DNA of 64,000 nucleotides from a virus (Duplodnaviria > Heunggongvirae > Uroviricota > Caudoviricetes): the IMG/VR virus record IMGVR_UViG_2541047873_000001; one strand, 5' to 3'. The position numbers were made by a program, and so were the translations under genes. The first letter of the stretch is position 1; each line of letters begins with the position of its first letter. Below are positions 14,285 through 53,555 of this stretch, in pieces. The notes beneath the pieces are model-generated. The model was not told the origin of the DNA. It was given only the letters and a program-made list of their open reading frames with translations, and searched no databases.

Positions 14285-14520
14285 TTATATTCATGCCGTC
14301 GTAGCAAATTCTGCGACCAGGTTTGACAGCCTGAATACTTACGCGGACAACCGCACATTTCCGATATTGCGGTATTTTTGTGTCCGTAAAACCACGTTAC
14401 GCCCGAATTATGGTGGGGCGTGATGGGGAGGCTTCGGCCTGCTGGTTTCGTAAGTGCCAGTCTGTCAACCCTGTCACGTCCTGCCACCTGTTTGACAGCG
14501 GGTCGCAGGTTGTTTATCAA
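14285..14520 (+). ncRNA. Candidate C4-like antisense RNA or immI leader (approximate bounds)
   Basis: ORF-free leader before icd with a UUCG-loop hairpin (gaggcttcggcctg) and repeated ttgacag / ctgtcaa complementary elements, resembling the P1 c4-icd-ant layout. Confidence 0.3.
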
Positions 14521-14537: not shown

Positions 14538-14762
14538 ATGGTTAATGCCAATCATTGCTCACGTCCAGAATTCATCTGGCGTTTCCACTCCCTGCAAAAA
14601 CATTGTGATCACTTCGCAATTGCCGCAACTGAAAAAGAAGCCCGTTCTCTGATCCCTGATCAGTATGGCGTTCTCACTGGTCGTTTCTCTACTTCCCCAC
14701 AACCAAACACTAATCCCTGGTATCGCAATATTACCAATCCCGGCATTGCGGAGGCTCACTGA
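14538..14762 (+). CDS. icd: Icd-like cell division inhibitor
   Basis: 74 aa immediately upstream of and overlapping the Rha/Ant gene; paralog of 52369..52584 (EFIWRF..C..H..AATE.EAR motif). Confidence 0.55.
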   Translation: MVNANHCSRPEFIWRFHSLQKHCDHFAIAATEKEARSLIPDQYGVLTGRFSTSPQPNTNPWYRNITNPGIAEAH

Positions 14763-15469
14763 TGGATATCTGCATTCTCGAAAAACTATCAATGACCAGC
14801 ATTGAGATTGCGGAGCTGGTGGGAAGTCAACACTCTGACGTTAAACGTAGTATTGAGCGTATGGTTGCTCGAAGCATTATCCGAAAACCGCCAATGGCTG
14901 TTTTCGAAAAAATCAATAACTTAGGATTGCGTCGTGGCGTTGAGGCTTACGTCTTCGAAGGCGAGCAAGGCAAACGAGACAGCATTATTGTCGTTGCGCA
15001 GCTCTCTCCGGAATTCACCGCCCGGCTGGTGGACCGCTGGCGCGAACTGGAAGAACAAGTACGCCAGCCGTTGACCGAAATAGAGATGATCGCTGCAATG
15101 GCTGCGAATGCAGTTCAGCAGCAAAAGCGGCTTCATGCTGTTGAGTCAAAGGTTAGCCAGGTCGCTGAAACCGTCGAGCAGATCAAGAAAGGCAACATAC
15201 CAGAAGGCTACATTGGCTACCGCCAACTGGCGGCGAAATGCGGCCTGACTGAAGCCAAATGCCGTAACCTGGTCAACGCTTACCGGATCCCCACAGATAC
15301 GCATGAGTTTTTGACGCCAGAGGGGGTATTGTCGCGTCGTACTATTGTGGCCTTATCTCCCTTCATGAATGCCTTTACCCTGATGATGTCGGAGGCTGAA
15401 CACCGAGGAAAACGCTGGTATCACCCAAGGATGGGGCAATTCCAGGTAATCGGTTGGGGAGGCGAGTGA
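14762..15469 (+). CDS. ant: Antirepressor, Rha/Ant family
   Basis: N-terminal TSIEIAELVGSQHSDVKRSIER (Rha-type) and conserved central/C-terminal blocks shared with 52584..53525. Confidence 0.7.
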   Translation: MDICILEKLSMTSIEIAELVGSQHSDVKRSIERMVARSIIRKPPMAVFEKINNLGLRRGVEAYVFEGEQGKRDSIIVVAQLSPEFTARLVDRWRELEEQVRQPLTEIEMIAAMAANAVQQQKRLHAVESKVSQVAETVEQIKKGNIPEGYIGYRQLAAKCGLTEAKCRNLVNAYRIPTDTHEFLTPEGVLSRRTIVALSPFMNAFTLMMSEAEHRGKRWYHPRMGQFQVIGWGGE

Positions 15470-15666
15470 TGGACATCATGCAGGCGGTAAAAAAAATCAG
15501 GGAAGGACAGGCTGAAGTGTGCCGCCGTAAAGCATGGAGTGTTGGTGTATGGGTCTGGCCTGATAATAGCTCTACTACTGGATGGTTTTGTATTAATGGA
15601 TACCAGATCCGGGAAGTCGATTTATCGACGGCGGATGCAGTCGGTAATGATTGGATCGTAACTTGA
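15454..15666 (+). CDS. Small DUF2829-like (Tad2-like) protein
   Basis: 70 aa, AVKKIREGQAEVCRRKAW...DAVGNDWIVT; homologous to the C-terminal extension of the second Ant copy. Confidence 0.45.
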   Translation: MGRRVMDIMQAVKKIREGQAEVCRRKAWSVGVWVWPDNSSTTGWFCINGYQIREVDLSTADAVGNDWIVT

Positions 15667-15674
15667 AGTGTGAT

Positions 15675-15699
15675 GCCCCGGCTTGGCCGGGGCTTTTTT
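15675..15699 (+). terminator. Rho-independent terminator
   Basis: gccccggcttggccggggc hairpin plus a T6 run, between convergent genes. Confidence 0.65.
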
Positions 15700-16183
15700 A
15701 TGCCTCATTAGTTGAGGTTGCTGCGTCTCCGACTGGTAACAGAGCTGTATTGCGTGGTTCGCCAGCAGGCCAGCGATAGCCAGACACTCTTGATGTTGGG
15801 AATGCGCGAATATTAACAGCATCCCCCTGGTTCCCACCCAAGACAAGCAGATCGCCATTGGCGCGGTGTCCGACAACAAAGCCTACATGCCCACCGCCTG
15901 CGCGAGTAAATACAACGATACATCCGTATGCCGGTGTATCTAATTTCTCGCCCCAATCCAGATAGGATTTTGCCGACTCAAATCTTGTTGAGCGGATACC
16001 TACACGTTCCAGCATTGCACCAACAAATGCAGCGCACCACGGCGTTTCGTCGTCTTTAATTCCGCTGCGCTTAATATCCCGCCAGAACTGAACGATCTCA
16101 GGATTGTGTTTCGCTCCTTTTATTTCGGTGACTCCAATATTTTTACGGGCCTCAATAAGCCAGCGAGGTTCAATGTTTGCCAT
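15698..16183 (-). CDS. Cys/His cell-wall hydrolase candidate (NlpC/P60 or CHAP-like, TIGR02594-type)
   Basis: 161 aa with PWCAAFVGAMLE and GHVGFVVG motifs typical of papain-like peptidoglycan hydrolases. Confidence 0.45.
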   Translation of the reverse strand: MANIEPRWLIEARKNIGVTEIKGAKHNPEIVQFWRDIKRSGIKDDETPWCAAFVGAMLERVGIRSTRFESAKSYLDWGEKLDTPAYGCIVVFTRAGGGHVGFVVGHRANGDLLVLGGNQGDAVNIRAFPTSRVSGYRWPAGEPRNTALLPVGDAATSTNEA

Positions 16184-16320: not shown

Positions 16321-19300
16321 TTGAGGGGGCTTCCTTTGGACAAAATAATTGATTCAATTAGCCAGGCCACCAGCATTGGGGCGCTGATTGAAATTGTTAG
16401 TCGGTTGCATAAACCGCGAGCTGTAGTGACCTTTGGCGTTAAGAAAGTCGATGGCGTCAGTATTCAGAAAACACGCCGGACAGCAAACAACGCCGCAGTA
16501 GATCTTCTTAATTCCCTTCCGCCCGGCTTCGATGGAGCGAAATTAACTGACGAACAGCGTCAGATTCTTGCCGGGTATACCGGTGAAGGCGGCCTGACAG
16601 ATGGTGAGGGCAGCCAATACGAATACTATACGCCACAGTTTATGGCAGAAGGTATATGGGATCTCTTCGGCGACTACGGTATTGATAGCGGTCACGTACT
16701 GGAACCGTCAGCAGGCACAGGTATTTTCCAGGAGACAAAACGGCAGGGCATGATAATGACCAGCGCCGAACTGTCTCCGATCTCCGGTCGAATAAACCAG
16801 CTTTTGCACCCGGAAGATGATGTGAATATCGGGGCGTTTGAGGCGCTGGCGGCGAAAGATGCAATGTATGACCACGCAGTTGGTAACGTACCGTTTGGCG
16901 AAGGGCGTTCCGGCGTCGCCGGGCTTGATCCGGCATATGCAAACGAGAAGAACGTTGGCAATTATTTTGTGCTGCGCACGATCGACAAGGTTAAGCCTGG
17001 TGGGCTAATTGTATTGGTGGTGCCGAATGGCATGACCGATGGTACGAAATACAAAAAATTGCGCGATAAAGTCAGCCGTAAAGCGGAATTTTTGGGCGCG
17101 CATCGTATGCCTTCTGGTACGTTCAGCGAATCCGGTACAGATACCGTGGTGGACGTATGGGTATTGCGTAAACACCCGGAAACCTTCCTGGAGATGATCC
17201 CCGACACGGATGATGCAACGCTCAAATCGGCAAACGTCCTTTGGGATACCTTCCTCAAAGGGAAATGGTTTACAACCGAAGGGAAGCGATTTGTTTACGG
17301 CGACATGGAACGCACCAGCTTCCGCAATACCCTGGTGGTGAAAAAGGACGGTCGTGTATCCAATGAGTCGATGAAAACCGCGTTATCACGCCGCTTTGAA
17401 AGCCGTATTAATTGGGATTTGCTCGGAGTAACTACCCAGGCATGGCAGGGCGCAAAAGTAGGGGATAAGCGTCTTGTAGGCGGTATCTGGCATGAGTTTG
17501 ATGGCCTGAAATGGGTTAAGGACACGACAACCAAATCCTCCGCGCTTGATGTAAGTCGATATGGTGTTTCGACGTTTGGCGATCTGCAGATCGCGTTCCA
17601 GTCAACAAACGGGATTCTGGCTTTGTCATGGGACCAGATATCGGCGATCGCGTCCGACTATCCATCGGTTGTCAGTGATGAAGTGGCAGCAATGATTCGC
17701 TTTGCTGGCAAACAGCGAGAAAAAGACAGGGAGCGCGTTATGCGCGGTGCGTTGATAGGGCAGTTGATCAACAAGGCACTTGATTTGCGTAACCTGGGGG
17801 TGAACGTTGATGACAAACTGGCAGATGCATCCCGCCTGGCGGCAGCAGAAGTTGCGAAGTATGGACCACCGCACGCGATTAAGCTGAATGGGCTTGCTGA
17901 AGCTGGCGCTAAAAACTGGATGACGTTCACTGGCAATGTGAAACAGGATGGTTCCACTTCTGACCTTCTGGCAGGGCGACTTGATGTAACGGATGGTGCT
18001 GCCGGTATTGACTTTACACGTCCGGAACAAGTGATAGCACATCTTTTCAGTGATGTAGCCCTTAATCCTATAACGCTGGGCGACTTTCGTGAGGCGTTTG
18101 CTGGTGAACTGCCAGAGGACGACGACGCGGCCCTTGAATACCTGGCGAAATTTGATGATATCGCTATTGATGGGTATGGCTGCCTGCTGCCGATGGACCG
18201 CGCCACCAGCGGCGATATTGTAACCAAAACAGCATTGCTGGTGGGCTGGCGTGATGCATCAACAGGTGAGCAGAAAGCGAACTTTGAGCGTCAGTTGGCG
18301 AAAATCGAAGAGAAACGCATTTTCACGCCACTAAATAAAGTCACCGTTAATCTGAACGCCCGCTGGCTGGATCGCCGCTTGATAAAAGAGTTCCTGGCAG
18401 AGCAGGGCTATGACGAGTTTAAGTACACTGAACCTGATCTGAAGGTCGTCGATGGCATTCTGGTATCTCCGGACGATTACGAAGGTAAGGACGGGGTATT
18501 TACCGGCTATCAGCTACGAACCGTAAACGGCAAAAACGGGAATGAGTTCAAGAAGGCCAACAATAAAGACGGCTTCCTGAACCAGTTAGAAAACTACCTG
18601 AACGGTGTTAAACCGCGTGGGCAGAACGCTAACGAGTACCTGGATAAAATTGCTCAACTGGAAGTTAGCTTTAACGACTGGTTACGCACCCACCCGCAGG
18701 CGGATCAGATAGCCCGTGACTATAACGACGCATTCAATGGCTTCATTCCGTTCACGCACTCTAACGCACCGCTTGGCCTGGAAGGGATTAGTGGAAAGCG
18801 CATTCCTCTGACTTATCAGAATGAAGAAGTTCGTCGCTTATCAGAAGATGGGCGCGGCATCATGGGATTTGGCACCGGGCTGGGTAAAACCACGACCGCG
18901 CTTGCGCTTGAGGCGTATAACTTCGAAACAGGTCGTACTAAACGCACGTGTATTGTTGTTCCGAAGGCGGTTTATCAGAACTGGTATCACGAGGCACAGA
19001 GCTTCTACAGTGCTGATGCCTTCGCCAATATGATGTTTATCGGTCTGGATGAAGTTCGTGATGACAGCGGAAATATTCTGACCGCTCCGGTGCTTGATGA
19101 AAATGGCGAACCCCGCCTCGACAGTAACGGGCAGCCTCTTACCAGAAATGTTGTGAAAGAGTCCGCCAGCGCCGTTATCGTTCAGCGCATGAACATGATC
19201 CCGTCGTCAAATTGGCGAACGGTCATCATGACAAAAGAACAATTCGCGTCTATCCCGCTACGAGAAAAAACCATCGAGGAGAACTCACAGCAAGCTGTCT

Positions 19301-22300
19301 TTAATGCTGTGGAAATGGGGCGTCTTGACCTGGCGTCTGGTAAACACCGTGATGCGCAGAAGAAGAACAAGATTAAGGATCAGGCCGCGAATACCGGTAC
19401 AACGAAGAAGCAGAATATCCCGTACTTTGAGGATATGAACTTCGATAGCGTGATAGCCGACGAGGGGCATAACTACCGCAACTCCTTTAATGCCGGGCGT
19501 GAAGCGGGACAACTGGCATATTTGCCTAACCCGGCAGTATCCAAGATGGCCCGCGACATGGCTGTAAAAGCTGCGTACATGATGAAACGCAACAACGGGC
19601 GTGGTGTAGTCATGCTGACGGCAACACCGCTGGTGAACAGTCCGATTGATGCCTTCAACATGCTGTCTACTGTCATTCCGCAGGAAGAGTGGATGCGCAT
19701 GGGCATCATTACGCCTGATGATTTCGTTCGTGTGTTTGGTAAAACAGCCACAGTTCAGGTCCAGAAAATTTCCGGGGAAGTGGAAGAGAAGCAGGGGCTG
19801 GTTGGCTTCCAGAACCTTGATGGCCTGCGTGGCATTTTCCATCGCTGGACTACTCTGAAGACTGCTGCGGACGTCGGGGCGACGGTTAAAATCCCTGATA
19901 TTGTCGAGAATACCTTGCAGATCCCGATGACAGGGGAGCAGGAGGCTGCTTATGAAGAGCTTCGTAAGCGTGCACAGGAGTTAAGTAGTAAAGATGCGCT
20001 GACGGTTGATGAAAACGGGCATATCACAAACGAAAAACCGGATGATTTCATCTTCTCCATCATCCGCGACATGGATAAGGTTGCTATAGATCCGGATCTG
20101 TATGCCAGTGCGATTACATTCCAGTTCCCCGTTGAGCTTGCAGACAAGGTAAAAGCTATTGCTGATGCCCTGCCAAAAGTAGCTGGCGGTAAAGTGGCAG
20201 ATGATGCAGACGAGGCCGAAGAAGACGGCGCTGGTGGGCTGGTTAGTACGCGCACCAGTAAGGTAGTGAAGACCACCTTTAGTGAACATCCGGCGCATGT
20301 TGAAATACGTGCCAGCATTGAACTGGAAGCTGAAATACTGAAGGCCATTGCTGCCGCCGGGATTGATATGCAGCAGGTATCACACCCAATCCCGCCGAAG
20401 TATGCCGCGCTGATCGAAAACCTTCGTGAAGGTCTGAAGAACGGTAAACAAATTGTCTTCATTGATGAAAAAGCCCAGCACCAGAAGCTGCGCCGTATTA
20501 TCGCCAGTGCACTGCAAATGCCGGAGCAGGAGATAGGCATTATCAATGCGACGACCGTTAGCCAGGCTGGCGGCATCAAGCTGAAGAAGGTGAATAAGCC
20601 GACTGAACCTACTCCGAATAAAAACGGTGAATACAAAGAAGGGGCATGGGAAACCTACTACAGCAAACTTGCCCAATATGAGGATTATCTCTCAGCTAAA
20701 AATGATGCTGGCCTTGAGGGTATGGAAGGCATTGCCGCCGACTATAACGAAGGGCGCACGCGCATAATTATCTGTAACAAGAAGGCTGAAGTAGGTATTA
20801 ACCTGCATATCGGGACAACCGATATCCACCACCTGACACTACCCTGGACACCAGCCAGTATCGACCAACGAAATGGGCGCGGTGCGCGCGTAGGTTCACC
20901 GCAAGAGAAGGTCAATGTTCACTACTATTGTGGCAAAGGCACATTCGACGACTTCCGTCTGGATACGCTGAAACGTAAGAAAGACTGGATCAAGATGGTG
21001 ATGACCTCCGACATGTCAGAGATCGCCAATGGTGATGCGGATGATGCTGATGAACGCGCCATTATGCTGGCGGCAAACCCGGAAGAACGCCGCGCAATCA
21101 TGGCTCGCCAGGCGCAAGAGCGTGAAGAACGTCTGAAACTGAAAGCACAGCGCGAGGCCAACAATGCTCTCGATATCTACCTGAAAGCGGCAAACGCCGC
21201 TGGAAAAGATATCGGCATGATGGAGACAGAACTGAAAAGCGCGATGGAACAGATAGAGTATTACCAGCGAAATCTTGACGACCTGATAAAAGCGGGTACG
21301 AACAGGAATGGGCAAAAATTCGCGCTTGAGCAGTTGAGTAGCTACAGAAAACGTGCGCGGGTGCTGCGGTTTGCGATCACCAGGGCAAAAGACGCGGATA
21401 CCATAATGAAACGCTCTCGTGGTGATGTGGAGCGCGCTATTAAGTCTGGTGTGCTGGATATCAGTATCGATGTTATTCAGAACCCACAGGAATATATGCG
21501 CACTGACAAGAATATCCTGTTGCATAAAGGTAGTTATTACCGTGCAGTCATTGATGATCGCGAAACAACAGCGATTGTCCGGGTGGAAAAAATTGACGGT
21601 GAAAAAGCACAATACCTCTGCCGTATCGCCTGGCTGGATAGAGCAAGTCGTTACGCTCGATCACCGGGGTCAATCGTTACATTGCCGTTTGACTCTGTGA
21701 TTGAAGCGGTAACTTTTGAAGAGGGGGTAGCTGAATCGCGCGCAACGGCTGCGCGTGGTGTTCAGTGCCACCAGCTATCAACAATACTTACTCGCGATCA
21801 GTTCTATGATGCTATTCGCAATGGGGTAATGAATGTTATTGCTGGTAAACCTGGTAATGCATGGGGCGGTGGGTCAGCTATTAAATACTGGGCATATCGT
21901 ACAGATGATGGTCAGATCGCGCTGTCATCGGCCTATGATGGCGTGATAGGCCAAAAAATCGGGCGAGCATCGGATATAGCACCTGAACGATGGATATATC
22001 CAGATGGCAACGATGAGGCGCTGAAGCGTGAAGTGGCAAAAATACAAGCCAGTGATAACCCGCTGAATATCGTGGACGGCGAGGGATTCCTCCAGGCATT
22101 GTATGGGTATGATTACATCCAGGGAATGCAGGCATGGGGCGCACAGGCAACGATGGATGATGTTGTCCAGGAGTTCGAAAACTGGATGGCTGGGCGTGGT
22201 CTGTCAGGTCGTTCGCTTAATAAAGTCACTTCTGAAGATATTCTTAGCTTGTTCCGCAAACCGTCCGGAGAAGGTCTGGAATCATTCTGGAGGACCGTGC

Positions 22301-23172
22301 TGGCATACCGTTTATTCAAGGGCAGAATGAAAGCCTTTAGCAATATCGATGATATTGAACGGATGTTTAATCAGGTCAAGATCGCCAAAATTAAGACGAA
22401 GATCGAAAAAACACGTTCTGCGCTGGTGGCCTGGCGCGATGCATTGTTTGAGCAATATAAATCACTCAGTGATGCAGATGGATGGGCGGCATTGGAACAG
22501 TTGGCGAATAATGGGGTAGATGGAGCGAAACTCGCCATAGTCCAGGCTGATAACCCCCTGGAATCACCGGCAGCACAGTGGATTAAGGTGGGGGCTGTCA
22601 TCAATGCATTTGATGAAAAACACATTAGTAAGGACGATTTTGCTGATGCTGTTTCTGTTAATCGCCTGGTAGAAATGGCTACCCGCCGCGCCCGTGAGTT
22701 GAAAGACGGTGACTATGTGAATGAGTTGCCGGATGCGCTCAAATCAGCAACGTGGCAAGACTATGTATCGCTGAAAAACGGCGGGGCAACCGAATCAGAG
22801 ATCGCGGAAAGGCTTGAACAGGCTGAAAGCAAAAGAGAAGAGCAGGCGGCAGTGGCTGAAGCCAGAGCTGATGAAGCGGCGAATGATGACTATATCATTG
22901 TGGTTAATGATAAGCCGATTCGCGCTAAGGCGCGTGTTCGCGGGCGCTGGTGGAGTGTCAGCGAGGACGTCGGTGCGGTTTATCTCATTGCCGACCAACC
23001 TGGTTCCTCGACAATACGGAACGCCAAAGACGCGATTAAGAAGATTGGCGGGCGTTTCTGGAATTTTGAAGCAAACCCGGTTGCTGATGTGAACTTTGAC
23101 CGTCCTGCATGGATGGTATCTACGCGTTACTCGGTAGATGAACTGCGTAAAATAATCGCCGATGCGGCCTAA
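16321..23172 (+). CDS. darB: DarB-type antirestriction protein (N6-adenine methyltransferase plus DExH helicase)
   Basis: 2283 aa; SAM motif EPSAGTGIF and NPPF-like GNVPFG; Walker A GFGTGLGKTTTA and DEGHNYRN box. Start is uncertain (TTG at 16321 or 16336). Confidence 0.8.
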   Translation: MRGLPLDKIIDSISQATSIGALIEIVSRLHKPRAVVTFGVKKVDGVSIQKTRRTANNAAVDLLNSLPPGFDGAKLTDEQRQILAGYTGEGGLTDGEGSQYEYYTPQFMAEGIWDLFGDYGIDSGHVLEPSAGTGIFQETKRQGMIMTSAELSPISGRINQLLHPEDDVNIGAFEALAAKDAMYDHAVGNVPFGEGRSGVAGLDPAYANEKNVGNYFVLRTIDKVKPGGLIVLVVPNGMTDGTKYKKLRDKVSRKAEFLGAHRMPSGTFSESGTDTVVDVWVLRKHPETFLEMIPDTDDATLKSANVLWDTFLKGKWFTTEGKRFVYGDMERTSFRNTLVVKKDGRVSNESMKTALSRRFESRINWDLLGVTTQAWQGAKVGDKRLVGGIWHEFDGLKWVKDTTTKSSALDVSRYGVSTFGDLQIAFQSTNGILALSWDQISAIASDYPSVVSDEVAAMIRFAGKQREKDRERVMRGALIGQLINKALDLRNLGVNVDDKLADASRLAAAEVAKYGPPHAIKLNGLAEAGAKNWMTFTGNVKQDGSTSDLLAGRLDVTDGAAGIDFTRPEQVIAHLFSDVALNPITLGDFREAFAGELPEDDDAALEYLAKFDDIAIDGYGCLLPMDRATSGDIVTKTALLVGWRDASTGEQKANFERQLAKIEEKRIFTPLNKVTVNLNARWLDRRLIKEFLAEQGYDEFKYTEPDLKVVDGILVSPDDYEGKDGVFTGYQLRTVNGKNGNEFKKANNKDGFLNQLENYLNGVKPRGQNANEYLDKIAQLEVSFNDWLRTHPQADQIARDYNDAFNGFIPFTHSNAPLGLEGISGKRIPLTYQNEEVRRLSEDGRGIMGFGTGLGKTTTALALEAYNFETGRTKRTCIVVPKAVYQNWYHEAQSFYSADAFANMMFIGLDEVRDDSGNILTAPVLDENGEPRLDSNGQPLTRNVVKESASAVIVQRMNMIPSSNWRTVIMTKEQFASIPLREKTIEENSQQAVFNAVEMGRLDLASGKHRDAQKKNKIKDQAANTGTTKKQNIPYFEDMNFDSVIADEGHNYRNSFNAGREAGQLAYLPNPAVSKMARDMAVKAAYMMKRNNGRGVVMLTATPLVNSPIDAFNMLSTVIPQEEWMRMGIITPDDFVRVFGKTATVQVQKISGEVEEKQGLVGFQNLDGLRGIFHRWTTLKTAADVGATVKIPDIVENTLQIPMTGEQEAAYEELRKRAQELSSKDALTVDENGHITNEKPDDFIFSIIRDMDKVAIDPDLYASAITFQFPVELADKVKAIADALPKVAGGKVADDADEAEEDGAGGLVSTRTSKVVKTTFSEHPAHVEIRASIELEAEILKAIAAAGIDMQQVSHPIPPKYAALIENLREGLKNGKQIVFIDEKAQHQKLRRIIASALQMPEQEIGIINATTVSQAGGIKLKKVNKPTEPTPNKNGEYKEGAWETYYSKLAQYEDYLSAKNDAGLEGMEGIAADYNEGRTRIIICNKKAEVGINLHIGTTDIHHLTLPWTPASIDQRNGRGARVGSPQEKVNVHYYCGKGTFDDFRLDTLKRKKDWIKMVMTSDMSEIANGDADDADERAIMLAANPEERRAIMARQAQEREERLKLKAQREANNALDIYLKAANAAGKDIGMMETELKSAMEQIEYYQRNLDDLIKAGTNRNGQKFALEQLSSYRKRARVLRFAITRAKDADTIMKRSRGDVERAIKSGVLDISIDVIQNPQEYMRTDKNILLHKGSYYRAVIDDRETTAIVRVEKIDGEKAQYLCRIAWLDRASRYARSPGSIVTLPFDSVIEAVTFEEGVAESRATAARGVQCHQLSTILTRDQFYDAIRNGVMNVIAGKPGNAWGGGSAIKYWAYRTDDGQIALSSAYDGVIGQKIGRASDIAPERWIYPDGNDEALKREVAKIQASDNPLNIVDGEGFLQALYGYDYIQGMQAWGAQATMDDVVQEFENWMAGRGLSGRSLNKVTSEDILSLFRKPSGEGLESFWRTVLAYRLFKGRMKAFSNIDDIERMFNQVKIAKIKTKIEKTRSALVAWRDALFEQYKSLSDADGWAALEQLANNGVDGAKLAIVQADNPLESPAAQWIKVGAVINAFDEKHISKDDFADAVSVNRLVEMATRRARELKDGDYVNELPDALKSATWQDYVSLKNGGATESEIAERLEQAESKREEQAAVAEARADEAANDDYIIVVNDKPIRAKARVRGRWWSVSEDVGAVYLIADQPGSSTIRNAKDAIKKIGGRFWNFEANPVADVNFDRPAWMVSTRYSVDELRKIIADAA

Positions 23173-27726: not shown

Positions 27727-27803
27727 GATGGTGTAGCTCAGTAGGATAGAGCAGCAGCCTTCTAAGCTGTCGGTCGGTGGTTCGAATCCACCCACCATCG
27801 CCA
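27727..27803 (+). tRNA. tRNA-Arg (anticodon UCU)
   Basis: Hand-folded cloverleaf: acceptor gatggtg/caccatc, D arm gctc/gagc, anticodon loop cuUCUaa, T loop ggtgg-ttcgaat-ccacc, encoded CCA. Confidence 0.8.
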
Positions 27804-27808
27804 ATTTA

Positions 27809-27895
27809 GGGGAGTTAGTCCGTAGGGGTAGCGGGGTAGACTGTAAATCTACTGTCATTGCGACTCGGATGGTTCGACTCCATCACTCCCCACCA
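27809..27895 (+). tRNA. tRNA-Tyr (anticodon GUA), long variable arm
   Basis: Acceptor ggggagt/actcccc, anticodon arm gtaga-cuGUAaa-tctac, long variable arm, T arm gatgg-ttcgact-ccatc, CCA; resembles E. coli tRNA-Tyr. Confidence 0.7.
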
Positions 27896-27899
27896 AATT

Positions 27900-27975
27900 G
27901 CCGGTTTAGCTCAGTTGGTAGAGCGCCTGCCTTGTAAGCAGGATGTCAGCGGTTCGAGTCCGTTAACCGGCACCA
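27900..27975 (+). tRNA. tRNA-Thr (anticodon UGU)
   Basis: Acceptor gccggtt/aaccggc, D loop agctcagttggtagagc, anticodon arm cctgc-cuUGUaa-gcagg, T loop ttcgagt, CCA. Confidence 0.85.
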
Positions 27976-27983
27976 ACACAACA

Positions 27984-28056
27984 GGTAAGGGTATTTTGCG
28001 ACGTCGGAGATCGCCGAGCTTGGCAGAGGGTTCGAATCCCTACGAAGTACCCTTAC
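27984..28056 (+). other. tRNA-like element or pseudo-tRNA (T arm plus 10-bp terminal stem; no anticodon arm, no CCA)
   Basis: ggtaagggta...tacccttacc terminal helix encloses a gggttcgaatccc T-arm-like hairpin; too short for a complete tRNA. Confidence 0.25.
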
Positions 28057-28163
28057 CGTTGTGATGAATGCACAGGCTGATGTGCCGCAACTACAGTAGT
28101 GCGCGCTTTGCGGGGCTTGCTACAACCCTGTGTCGGAGTTCAGCACCGACCATCACAATCACT

Positions 28164-28250
28164 GGAGAGTAGGGAGCATGGTGCTCAAGCGGTCTTGAAA
28201 ACCGTCCCATTGCGCAAGCGATGATGGTTCGATTCCATTACTCTCCGCCA
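28164..28250 (+). tRNA. tRNA-Ser (anticodon UGA), type II
   Basis: Acceptor ggagagt/actctcc, anticodon arm gcggt-cuUGAaa-accgt as in E. coli tRNA-Ser(UGA), long variable arm, T loop ttcgatt, CCA. Confidence 0.7.
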
Positions 28251-28679
28251 GCGCAACGTTAAGAGTATTTGGCTAATTAAGCGAATGCCGGAAGCAGAAC
28301 CGGATCACCAAATGCGTACAGGCGTCATCGCCGCCCAGTCAGCCAAATGCTCTTACCATTGCGGTGAATGCGGCTAAGCGCACGCGGAACAGTTAAAACA
28401 GTAAAGGTGGTCTTTTTACTGGCGTAACGAGAATCCATAAGTGATCCGGCGTTAATTGTTAACTGGTTAACGTCACCGGGAGGCACCCGGCACCGCAACC
28501 TAACAGCAATGGCGTTTTGTCTTAAAAGGTGGCTGCAAGTGATGGATTTTTGGGCGTTTGCCGATAAAAACCCGGAGTGGACATTATTGTTTCTGCTGGT
28601 GGTTGCATACGGGGTAGAGCAAGCGGCAAAAGCCTTACGCGGTTCTGGCAAAAAGCGTAAGCGTAATTAACAGTAATCT

Positions 28680-28755
28680 GGCCCTTTAGCTCAGTGGTTA
28701 GAGCGGGCGACTCATAATCGCACGGTCACCGGTTCAAGTCCGGTAGGGGCCACCA
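28680..28755 (+). tRNA. tRNA with CAU anticodon, most like tRNA-Ile2 (AUA-decoding); elongator Met not excluded
   Basis: Near-complete resemblance to E. coli ileX-type tRNA as I recall it (GGCCCUUUAGCUCAGUGGUUAGAGC...CUCAUAAUCGC...GGUUCAAGUCC...GGGGCCACCA). Confidence 0.8.
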
Positions 28756-52055: not shown

Positions 52056-52160
52056 GAAAACACACAGTTGCGCCCTGGCATTATCGTGGGGTATATTTCT
52101 ACGGCACCTTAGAAAAACGGGTGCCGGGATTGGAACCCCGGATAATGCAAAAGGCGACAC

Positions 52161-52184
52161 AGACGCCGAAAGCGTCTTTTTTTG
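52161..52184 (+). terminator. Rho-independent terminator
   Basis: agacgccgaaagcgtct hairpin plus a T7 run. Confidence 0.6.
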
Positions 52185-52199
52185 TGTCATGCCATCGCA

Positions 52200-52345
52200 C
52201 AGCCATGCGTAGCGTTTAGCTCAGAGATCAATGGTAGTGCTGGCTGGGCTGCCGAAAGGCAGGCCGGTTCCCTTTTGCGCCGGTAGTTCCAACCCAGTCA
52301 GTGCTACCGCCATTGAGATTGGAACCTCACGCGGTAGCTCCTTAA
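52200..52345 (+). ncRNA. Candidate C4-like antisense RNA or immI leader, second copy (approximate bounds)
   Basis: GAAA-loop hairpin ggctgccgaaaggcagcc-like and elements complementary to the icd RBS region (ggaggctgcc); same architecture as 14285..14520. Confidence 0.3.
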
Positions 52346-52368: not shown

Positions 52369-52584
52369 ATGGCTACTATCCCTACCCCAACTCATTCTGA
52401 ATTTATCTGGCGTTTCTATTCCTGCCAAAAACACCTCTATATCTGCGTAATGGCTGCTACCGAAGCAGAGGCGCGCTCATACCTTCCCGAAGAACCCTGT
52501 ATTTTTGCTGCTCGCTTCACTCTTGATGCGATGGAGATCCTCAATTACTGGAATCTGCCGATGAACTGCGTGGAGGTGCACTGA
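52369..52584 (+). CDS. icd: Icd-like cell division inhibitor, second copy
   Basis: 71 aa, paralog of 14538..14762; overlaps the start of the second Ant gene. Confidence 0.55.
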   Translation: MATIPTPTHSEFIWRFYSCQKHLYICVMAATEAEARSYLPEEPCIFAARFTLDAMEILNYWNLPMNCVEVH

Positions 52585-53525
52585 TGAATCTGTCCATCTC
52601 TCAAAAAGCGACAATGACCAGCATTGAGATCGCGGAACTGGTGGGAAGTCGTCACTCTGATGTTAAACGCAGCATCGAAAGACTTGTTGCTAAAGGAGTT
52701 ATCCAACATACGCCATTGGCTACAGTTGAGAATAATCAATCACTTAGCCCTAATAAATACACAAAAGCCTATTTCTTCGAAGGCGAACAAGGCAAGCGCG
52801 ATAGTATTATCGTCGTCGCGCAGCTCTCTCCGGAATTCACCGCCCGGCTGGTGGACCGCTGGCGCGAACTGGAGAATGTCAGGGGACCGTTAAAATCAAA
52901 AGCCGAAATCCTGGCTGAAATGGCGCAAATGCATCTTGAGCATGAACGCAGGATCAACGCCGTAAATGCCCAGGTAGCCGAGGTATCGGCACAAGTGTCC
53001 AGGGTCACCGAAACACTTGAGCAGATCAAGAAAGGCAATATTCCAGAAGGCTACATTGGCTATCGCCAGTTGGCGGCAAAATGCGGCCTGACTGAAGCCA
53101 AATGCCGCAACCTGGTCAACGCTTACCGGATACCCACTGATACGCATGAGTTTTTAACTCCCGACGGTTTGCTTGCGCGACGCTCCATTGTGGCCCTGGC
53201 CCCCTTCCGGAAAGCCTTTAAGCAGGTTATGTCGGAGGCAGAACCACGTAACAAACGCTGGTATCATCCCAGGATGGGGCTATTTCAGGCCATTCACCAT
53301 CCTGTGCCTGAAAGTCCAAAGGCAAACCTGTCGTTGCATACCGCCAGAGAGAAGATTAAAACAGGGTATGCAACCGTATGCCGTCGAGCATCCTGGCCTG
53401 AAAGTGTCTGGGTATGGCCCGAAAGAGGCTCACGGAAAAACTGGCGCACCATTCGCGACGGCAAGATCTGTGCGATTGATTTACAGCCAGAAGATGTAGC
53501 AGCGACCGACTGGATTGTTAGTTAA
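52584..53525 (+). CDS. ant: Antirepressor (Rha/Ant family) fused to a C-terminal DUF2829-like module
   Basis: Rha-type N-terminus; 56-bp block identical to the first ant; C-terminus TVCRRASWPESVWVWP...AATDWIVS. Confidence 0.7.
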   Translation: MNLSISQKATMTSIEIAELVGSRHSDVKRSIERLVAKGVIQHTPLATVENNQSLSPNKYTKAYFFEGEQGKRDSIIVVAQLSPEFTARLVDRWRELENVRGPLKSKAEILAEMAQMHLEHERRINAVNAQVAEVSAQVSRVTETLEQIKKGNIPEGYIGYRQLAAKCGLTEAKCRNLVNAYRIPTDTHEFLTPDGLLARRSIVALAPFRKAFKQVMSEAEPRNKRWYHPRMGLFQAIHHPVPESPKANLSLHTAREKIKTGYATVCRRASWPESVWVWPERGSRKNWRTIRDGKICAIDLQPEDVAATDWIVS

Positions 53526-53532
53526 TAGATTT

Positions 53533-53555
53533 GCCCCGGTCATGCCGGGGCTTTA
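53533..53555 (+). terminator. Hairpin terminator
   Basis: gccccggtcatgccggggc hairpin plus a short T run. Confidence 0.5.

Follow-up and report, generated by a model that had tools for sequence, protein, structure and literature searches.

The locus considered here raises the question of why one of two related antirepressor genes encodes a C-terminal module as part of its product, whereas the other is followed by the homologous module in a separate small open reading frame (ORF). Both genes lie in a 64,000-nucleotide (nt) stretch of viral DNA (Caudoviricetes; IMG/VR record IMGVR_UViG_2541047873_000001), referred to as the window throughout, a D6-like phage-plasmid that carries a pair of paralogous operons of the immI type; at locus 1, ant1 is followed by the small gene, here called ORF65, and at locus 2 the module forms the tail of ant2. 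A preliminary description of this DNA had left the choice between a frameshift mutation, a programmed frameshift, and a deliberate two-gene arrangement. The last of these is supported, with the caveat that no purifying selection on the free copy is detectable in the D6-like clade: it is probable that the two-gene arrangement is common to the D6-like lineage and that the small gene is expressed by termination-reinitiation coupling. We favor this reading because the Shine-Dalgarno sequence and the TGATG overlap are kept in all 32 locus-1 sequences compared, ORF65 is open in 31 of them, the terminator follows ORF65, and the module is found as a lone gene elsewhere. The 32 sequences comprise the window, Escherichia phage D6, 9 plasmids (from Escherichia coli, E. 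marmotae, and Salmonella), and 21 IMG/VR contigs, with DNA divergence of up to ~9%. Locus 1 is laid out as follows.

14285..14337, + strand: c4-a1b1 target element of the immI-like locus 1 (Rfam RF03163, 55.2 bits against a gathering score of 46.7).
14406..14491, + strand: C4 antisense RNA of locus 1 (Rfam RF01695, 69.6 bits against a gathering score of 45).
14538..14762, + strand: icd-like ORF of 74 amino acids (aa), with an Icd-like annotation in D6 and RefSeq plasmids.
14762..15469, + strand: ant1, a Rha/Roi-type "antirepressor" of 235 aa lacking the tail module (Pfam PF09669, 31 bits; phrog_63, expect value [E] 1.4e-45).
15456..15462, + strand: Shine-Dalgarno sequence GGGGAGG for ORF65, within the last ant1 codons (W-G-G), in 32/32 relatives.
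15467..15471, + strand: TGATG stop/start overlap, with the ant1 stop at 15467-15469 and the ORF65 ATG at 15469-15471, in 32/32 relatives.
15469..15666, + strand: free-standing module gene ORF65, 65 aa (D6 orf17; PHROG 7385), intact in 31/32 relatives.
15675..15700, + strand: intrinsic terminator GCCCCGGC-TTG-GCCGGGGC followed by T6, closing the operon 3' of the small gene.

The junction reads ...GGT TGG GGA GGC GAG TGA TGG ACA TC..., so that the ant1 stop and the ORF65 ATG share one base (A), and GGGGAGG lies 6 nt before the ATG. The small ORF had been called at 15454..15666 (70 aa from a TTG), in the -1 frame relative to ant1. The separate ORF, its different frame, and its overlap with the ant stop all hold, but the TTG start probably does not: the real product most likely starts at ATG 15469 and has 65 aa, because this ATG overlaps the ant1 stop, is preceded by the well-spaced GGGGAGG, and is the start annotated in D6 and RefSeq, where two coding sequences are given, a 235-aa Ant (D6 orf18) and a 65-aa hypothetical protein (D6 orf17, 94% identical to ORF65). 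One gene upstream, the icd stop overlaps the ant1 start in another TGATG (14760-14764), with GGAGG at 14750-14754 (7-nt spacing); the icd/ant1 and ant1/ORF65 junctions are thus built alike, of a Shine-Dalgarno sequence, a short spacer, and TGATG. The likeness extends further, as the icd/ant1 junction GGAGGCTCACTGATGGATATC (14750-14770) closely resembles the ant1/ORF65 junction GGAGGCGAGTGATGGACATC (15458-15478), and the proteins encoded 3' of both start with MDI; the second may have arisen as a copy of the first, but convergence or chance could also account for the likeness.

In P1, icd and ant are translationally coupled. By the mechanism we propose for locus 1, ribosomes ending at the ant1 stop would reinitiate at the overlapping ATG of ORF65, and the free polypeptide would do what the fused tail does in Ant2, either non-covalently bound to Ant1 or independently. 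The C4 RNA of P1 represses Ant synthesis, and Ant acts there as a two-polypeptide complex (PMC8546580). Since C4 represses Ant synthesis in P1, and since translation of ORF65 would be tied to that of ant1, ORF65 would by analogy be silenced along with icd and ant1 whenever the C4 RNA is active.

The junction sequence GGTTGGGGAGGYGARTGATGGAC is present in all 32 locus-1 sequences, the sole variants being two changes that are synonymous for Ant1, and the single interrupted copy of ORF65 among them (L045) results from a 1-nt deletion in an A8 run. This homopolymer (15489-15496) lies inside ORF65, at codons 8-10, downstream of the ant1 stop. Beyond this set, ~110 plasmids carry a full-length locus-1-type match to ORF65 (residues 1-65) at ≥80% identity, and ≥80% of the locus-1 query is matched in ~108 E. 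coli, Salmonella, Shigella, and E. marmotae plasmids of ~90 kb. The locus-1 region of the window is 91% identical to phage D6 and 99.9% identical to the E. coli plasmid NZ_AP019805; the nearest plasmids reach 99.8-99.9% identity across the region, with the same two coding sequences annotated. The terminator is placed after ORF65, not after ant1.

Locus 2 provides the comparison. A second c4/icd region had already been noted in D6-like elements (PMC6799933), and in the window it consists of the following features.

52104..52182, + strand: isrK-like RNA element upstream of the locus-2 C4 RNA (Rfam RF01394, 62.5 bits).
52227..52314, + strand: C4 antisense RNA of locus 2 (Rfam RF01695, 76.7 bits).
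52369..52584, + strand: icd-like ORF of 71 aa, whose stop overlaps the ant2 start.
52584..53525, + strand: ant2, 313 aa, with Rha/Roi body (residues 1-237), linker (238-250), and fused module (251-313).
53295-53333, + strand: the ant2 linker; 53334-53522, + strand: the fused module.
53533..53551, + strand: GC-rich hairpin 3' of ant2, homologous to the stem of the locus-1 terminator and followed by only TTT.

The earlier claim that the locus-2 Ant is a 313-aa protein with a C-terminal module of ~60 aa was confirmed, residues 251-313 being homologous to the small ORF. The module is fused in all full-length, non-frameshifted locus-2 copies (308-313 aa; 19 IMG/VR loci, 7 plasmids, and D6 orf82). 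The two loci differ 5' of C4, with isrK (RF01394) at locus 2 versus c4-a1b1 (RF03163) at locus 1.

When the two loci were compared, Ant1 residues 1-230 and Ant2 residues 1-237 were 68% identical, including the paired segments HPRMGQFQVI and HPRMGLFQAI, and the small ORF was 41-43% identical to Ant2 residues 251-313, with C18, R19, R20, W23, W28, P31, D56, D61, and W62 invariant and a shared core pattern of CRR..W....W..P....D....DW. PHROG 7385, the family of the 65-aa protein, matches ORF65 over its full profile length (E 3.7e-47) and the Ant2 tail (E 3e-12). Homology had been said to run on across the junction; it holds for the ant bodies and for the modules, but not for the segment between them, as the locus-2 linker HHPVPESPKANLSLHT is without a counterpart in locus 1, whichever frame is read. 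At the DNA level, the loci are 90-95% identical in parts of the ant body but only ~40-60% identical over the junction and module. To judge from these sequences, the modules are anciently diverged (43% aa identity) although the ant bodies share stretches of 90-95% identical DNA. Because the linker is not homologous and the modules are anciently diverged relative to the ant bodies, the split, which is old, is not explained by a single-base indel in a fused gene that was duplicated recently.

Several further observations concern the ant genes. Within the ant bodies, stretches of 90-95% DNA identity (window 14975-15034 and 15163-15312 versus locus 2) alternate with stretches of ~45-60%, a mosaicism that suggests gene conversion between the loci, and one contig (L066) encodes a 313-aa Ant with an Ant1-like N terminus (MDICILEKPSMT) and an Ant2-type tail. 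A C5 run in ant2 (53201-53205, codon ~206) is C6 in 4 of the 26 locus-2-type IMG/VR contigs (L059, L061, L062, and L063), on at least two sequence backgrounds; the resulting frameshift leaves an N-terminal fragment and a 120-aa ORF ending in the module, and reflects either a sequencing error that recurs at this homopolymer or the repeated mutational inactivation of the second antirepressor. Two candidate variants were rejected. In the E. coli IncY plasmid NZ_CP139341 (L013, 1753-1998), an 81-aa coding sequence annotated "transcriptional regulator" beside a tyrosine recombinase is not a separate variant but the fused Ant2 tail plus linker in truncated form (MFQAIHHLLPESPK...DWIVS), probably left over from recombination, and pSa1423-160k was set aside because its record is full of indels.

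A HMMER search of 1.84 billion representative proteins with a module profile gave only 7 matches, which marks a very narrow family; a word-index search with ORF65 returned near-identical proteins only, and a scan of GTDB representative genomes found no relative. The two distant members of the family, P0124 (96 aa) and P0125 (68 aa), are lone module genes located 45-55 nt after a c4-a1b1 element and C4 RNA, with neither icd nor ant, at syntenic loci of two diverged phage-plasmid-like contigs of ~90 kb. Identity is 42% between the two and 27-40% between either of them and the window copies, and module identities are altogether star-like, at 27-43%. This layout, with the module as the only ORF directly behind c4-a1b1 and C4 RNA, is that of the distant phage-plasmid-like contigs L009 (3752-4291), L010 (3746-4207), and L011, where ParM/StbA and PAAR-like genes are neighbors; in L010 and L011 a 65-aa NikA-like ORF follows the module. 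Because lone genes of distant phage-plasmids also directly follow a C4 RNA, the association between C4 RNA and module has been long maintained, in three formats: alone, coupled, and fused. As for whether the fused or the split state is ancestral, a weak alignment between the Ant2 linker and the first 25 aa of P0124 hints at a fused ancestor for that lone gene.

For the analysis of selection, a gene neighboring locus 1 is needed, which is listed here with the features beyond it.

15698-16183, - strand: gene for a CHAP-domain, TIGR02594-family peptidoglycan hydrolase, converging on the immI terminator of locus 1.
16321-23172, + strand: ORF of 2283 aa beyond the CHAP gene, whose D6 counterpart is annotated "similar to P1 gene darB".
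27727-28752: a cluster of four tRNA genes.

The selection data weigh against the two-gene reading. In the D6-like clade, ORF65 has accumulated ~20 nonsynonymous to 6 synonymous changes, a neutral-like proportion (binomial p 0.81) that differs both from that of the fused tail (Fisher p 1.7e-4) and from that of the CHAP gene (8:32, p 8e-6). Expressed as a nonsynonymous/synonymous ratio, ORF65 stands at ~0.7-0.9, equal to the neutral expectation, and the CHAP neighbor at 0.08. The fused Ant2 tail, with 22 nonsynonymous and 45 synonymous state changes and a ratio of nonsynonymous to synonymous polymorphism (pN/pS) of 0.15, is strongly constrained; constraint is likewise seen in the ant2 linker (pN/pS 0.13), the ant2 body (0.26), and ant1 (0.27; 24 alleles), and it is strong in the CHAP gene. 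There is, in other words, no positive sign of current purifying selection on the free-standing protein, and fused and free copies are under sharply different selection. Moreover, the intactness of ORF65 is weak evidence, because only ~26 substitutions were sampled and ~5% of random changes create a stop, and truncated singleton variants of ORF65 do exist (P0002, P0003, P0126, and L045).

These data are what gives weight to a second explanation, that ORF65 is a relic: an ancestral fused ant1 would have been interrupted in a D6-like ancestor, leaving a detached tail that is open and perhaps translated but dispensable and drifting, for instance if the function is provided by the fused copy at locus 2. 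The neutral-like ratio of ORF65, set against those of the fused tail, ant1, and the CHAP gene, and the occasional occurrence of disrupted variants are what a relic would show. Drift of this kind fits poorly, however, with a Shine-Dalgarno sequence, ATG, and stop overlap that are invariant in the 32 sequences and a frame that is open in 31 of them and in ~110 plasmids, and the window copy keeps all nine residues of the family core. ORF65 is also no further from the outgroup P0124 (40% identity) than is the constrained fused tail (37%), which argues against long-term decay, and the non-homologous linker implies that the split was not a simple interruption. The changes in ORF65 define three classes of alleles, with co-variation at residues 29, 34, 45, and 57, and these could equally reflect diversifying selection; the near-neutral pattern as a whole could come from relaxed constraint, such as redundancy with locus 2, or from diversifying selection. 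On balance, we consider the relic explanation unlikely.

A third explanation turns on what the module is. The preliminary description had labeled it DUF2829-like, a label that is weakly supported: a remote likeness is present, but no copy of the module reaches the 25-bit gathering threshold of Pfam PF11195 (Tad2-like, formerly DUF2829). The scores were 16.7 bits for ORF65 (E 0.011), 10.6 for the Ant2 tail, 23.9 for P0124 (E 6e-5), and 14.0 for P0125; the first three span nearly the whole 73-position profile, and P0125 covers positions 15-73. In an AlphaFold 2 model of ORF65 (mean predicted local distance difference test [pLDDT] score, 73.6), the chain opens with a helix, which is followed by four strands, a short helix, and one more strand; this would be the order of Tad2, minus the alpha2 insertion, and when this model was compared with the PDB by Foldseek, Tad2 chains occupied ranks 1 to 9, although with weak scores (E 0.27-0.76). 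Profile alignment with hhalign against three PDB Tad2/AcrIIA7 sequences gave a P value of 6.2e-4 and a probability of 28% over 62 collinear columns, from a shallow profile; against 35 PF11195 proteins, the P value was 5.9e-5 and the probability 65%, with only the N-terminal 35 columns aligned. PDB sequence searches with module profiles or with P0124 returned chance matches only and no Tad2 chain. Remote homology of the module to Tad2/DUF2829 is thus quite likely, yet all scores stay below the curated threshold, and a sponge function is not to be assumed because the missing alpha2 is the Tad2 dimer interface. Confidence in an AlphaFold model of full-length, fused Ant2 was too low (mean pLDDT 61; predicted template modeling score, 0.30) for docking of the tail on the body to be judged. 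Our best guess, as part of the two-gene reading, is that the module serves the antirepressor system as a binding partner or effector; a role as a small-molecule sponge is less likely.

On this third explanation, the module could be a C4-gated effector that occurs in three interchangeable formats, being either a minimal Tad2-like sponge for a host immune signal or the true, repressor-binding antirepressor. As a sponge it would be released only when phage immunity is circumvented. In either role, the excess of amino-acid changes in ORF65 would reflect diversifying selection on its binding surface. The beta3-beta4 loop and helix alpha3, where residues 45 and 57 of ORF65, respectively, are located, contribute to the ligand pocket in Tad2. 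We nevertheless regard this explanation, as a whole, as quite doubtful.

The two-gene arrangement must also be set against a programmed -1 ribosomal frameshift, or slippage during transcription, close to the 3' end of ant1, by which short Ant and a fused Ant-module protein would both be made. The -1 frame of ORF65 is open from 15400, giving a 70-nt overlap window in which the Shine-Dalgarno-like GGGGAGG also falls; both points speak for such a mechanism. Inspection of 15400-15469 for slippery heptamers, however, yielded only partial matches to X_XXY_YYZ, no such heptamer occurs at any point in the ant1 frame, and the overlap holds no A or T run before the ant1 stop, only two G4 runs; the A8 run comes only after the stop. 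The predicted folding energy of 15420-15530 (minimum free energy, -29.2 kcal/mol) was like that of shuffled sequences (mean, -27.8; z -0.41), and so no significant stimulatory RNA structure was detected. If GGGGAGG acted as a stimulator, a slippery site would be needed between it and the stop, and none is there; its spacing is instead ideal for the overlapping ATG, and ORF65 has a strong Shine-Dalgarno sequence and a start codon of its own. In-frame readthrough of the UGA was likewise rejected, since it would add 6 residues only, the next ant1-frame stop lying 7 codons on (TAA, 15488-15490). A programmed frameshift is therefore very improbable. The weakest explanation, by which the gene is truly a plain fusion and its frame is disturbed by an indel of sequencing or assembly or by a recent frameshift private to this window, has nothing beyond the frame difference itself in its favor and is effectively refuted by the recurrence of the same homopolymer-free junction in independent assemblies (D6, the 9 plasmids, and the 21 IMG/VR contigs), by the two-gene annotation of the nearest plasmids (99.8-99.9% identity) and the full-length matches in ~110 plasmids, and by a linker that locus 1 does not encode.

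Taken by itself, the contrast between split and fused forms is an ordinary and already annotated case of gene fission or fusion between paralogous operons, in a common phage-plasmid family of E. coli and Salmonella. The analysis adds that the predicted fold of the module is remotely Tad2-like, that lone module genes stand behind C4 RNAs, and that the free copy evolves nearly neutrally. It also connects a protein annotated as hypothetical (D6 orf17, PHROG 7385) with the C-terminal domain of the second antirepressor and, at a distance, with the Tad2/DUF2829 fold; the annotations retrieved for PHROG 7385 and D6 orf17 tie the family neither to that Ant tail (D6 orf82) nor to DUF2829, and in the literature searched we found no paper joining DUF2829 with antirepressor terms. 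That the module is always tied to a C4 antisense RNA, even when alone, suggests a role in immunity bypass or early infection. If the module were indeed an anti-defense sponge or the actual antirepressor, P1-type immunity circuits would be joined to counter-defense.

Among known systems, the Tad2/DUF2829 proteins (PF11195; SPO1 Tad2, ModTad2, and AcrIIA7) have 85-104 aa compared with 63-65 aa for the module, and they carry, between beta2 and beta3, an insertion with alpha2, the dimer interface, which the module lacks. Proteins of the Tad2 type combine a helix at the N terminus with an antiparallel sheet (beta1-beta5) whose loops hold alpha2 and alpha3, and as homotetramers they sequester gcADPR or related immune signals. 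Unlike Tad2, the module, known here from its sequence and predicted fold, belongs to an immunity operon, in which a DNA-binding regulator is its fusion or coupling partner. The ant1/ORF65 junction shares with UGAUG-type translationally coupled gene pairs the common base and the Shine-Dalgarno sequence inside the upstream gene, and to judge from the sequence the icd/ant junctions of both loci are alike in this respect. Another close parallel is immI of P1, which resembles the operons described here in having a C4 RNA (RF01695, at both loci), an a1b1 element (at locus 1), and an overlapping icd stop. It differs in its antirepressor, as both copies of "Ant" in the window are of the Rha/Roi type (PF09669) and are not homologues of P1 Ant1/Ant2, and, unlike P1, the D6-like genome has two immI-like operons and the extra module, present once as a third coupled cistron and once as a fused tail.

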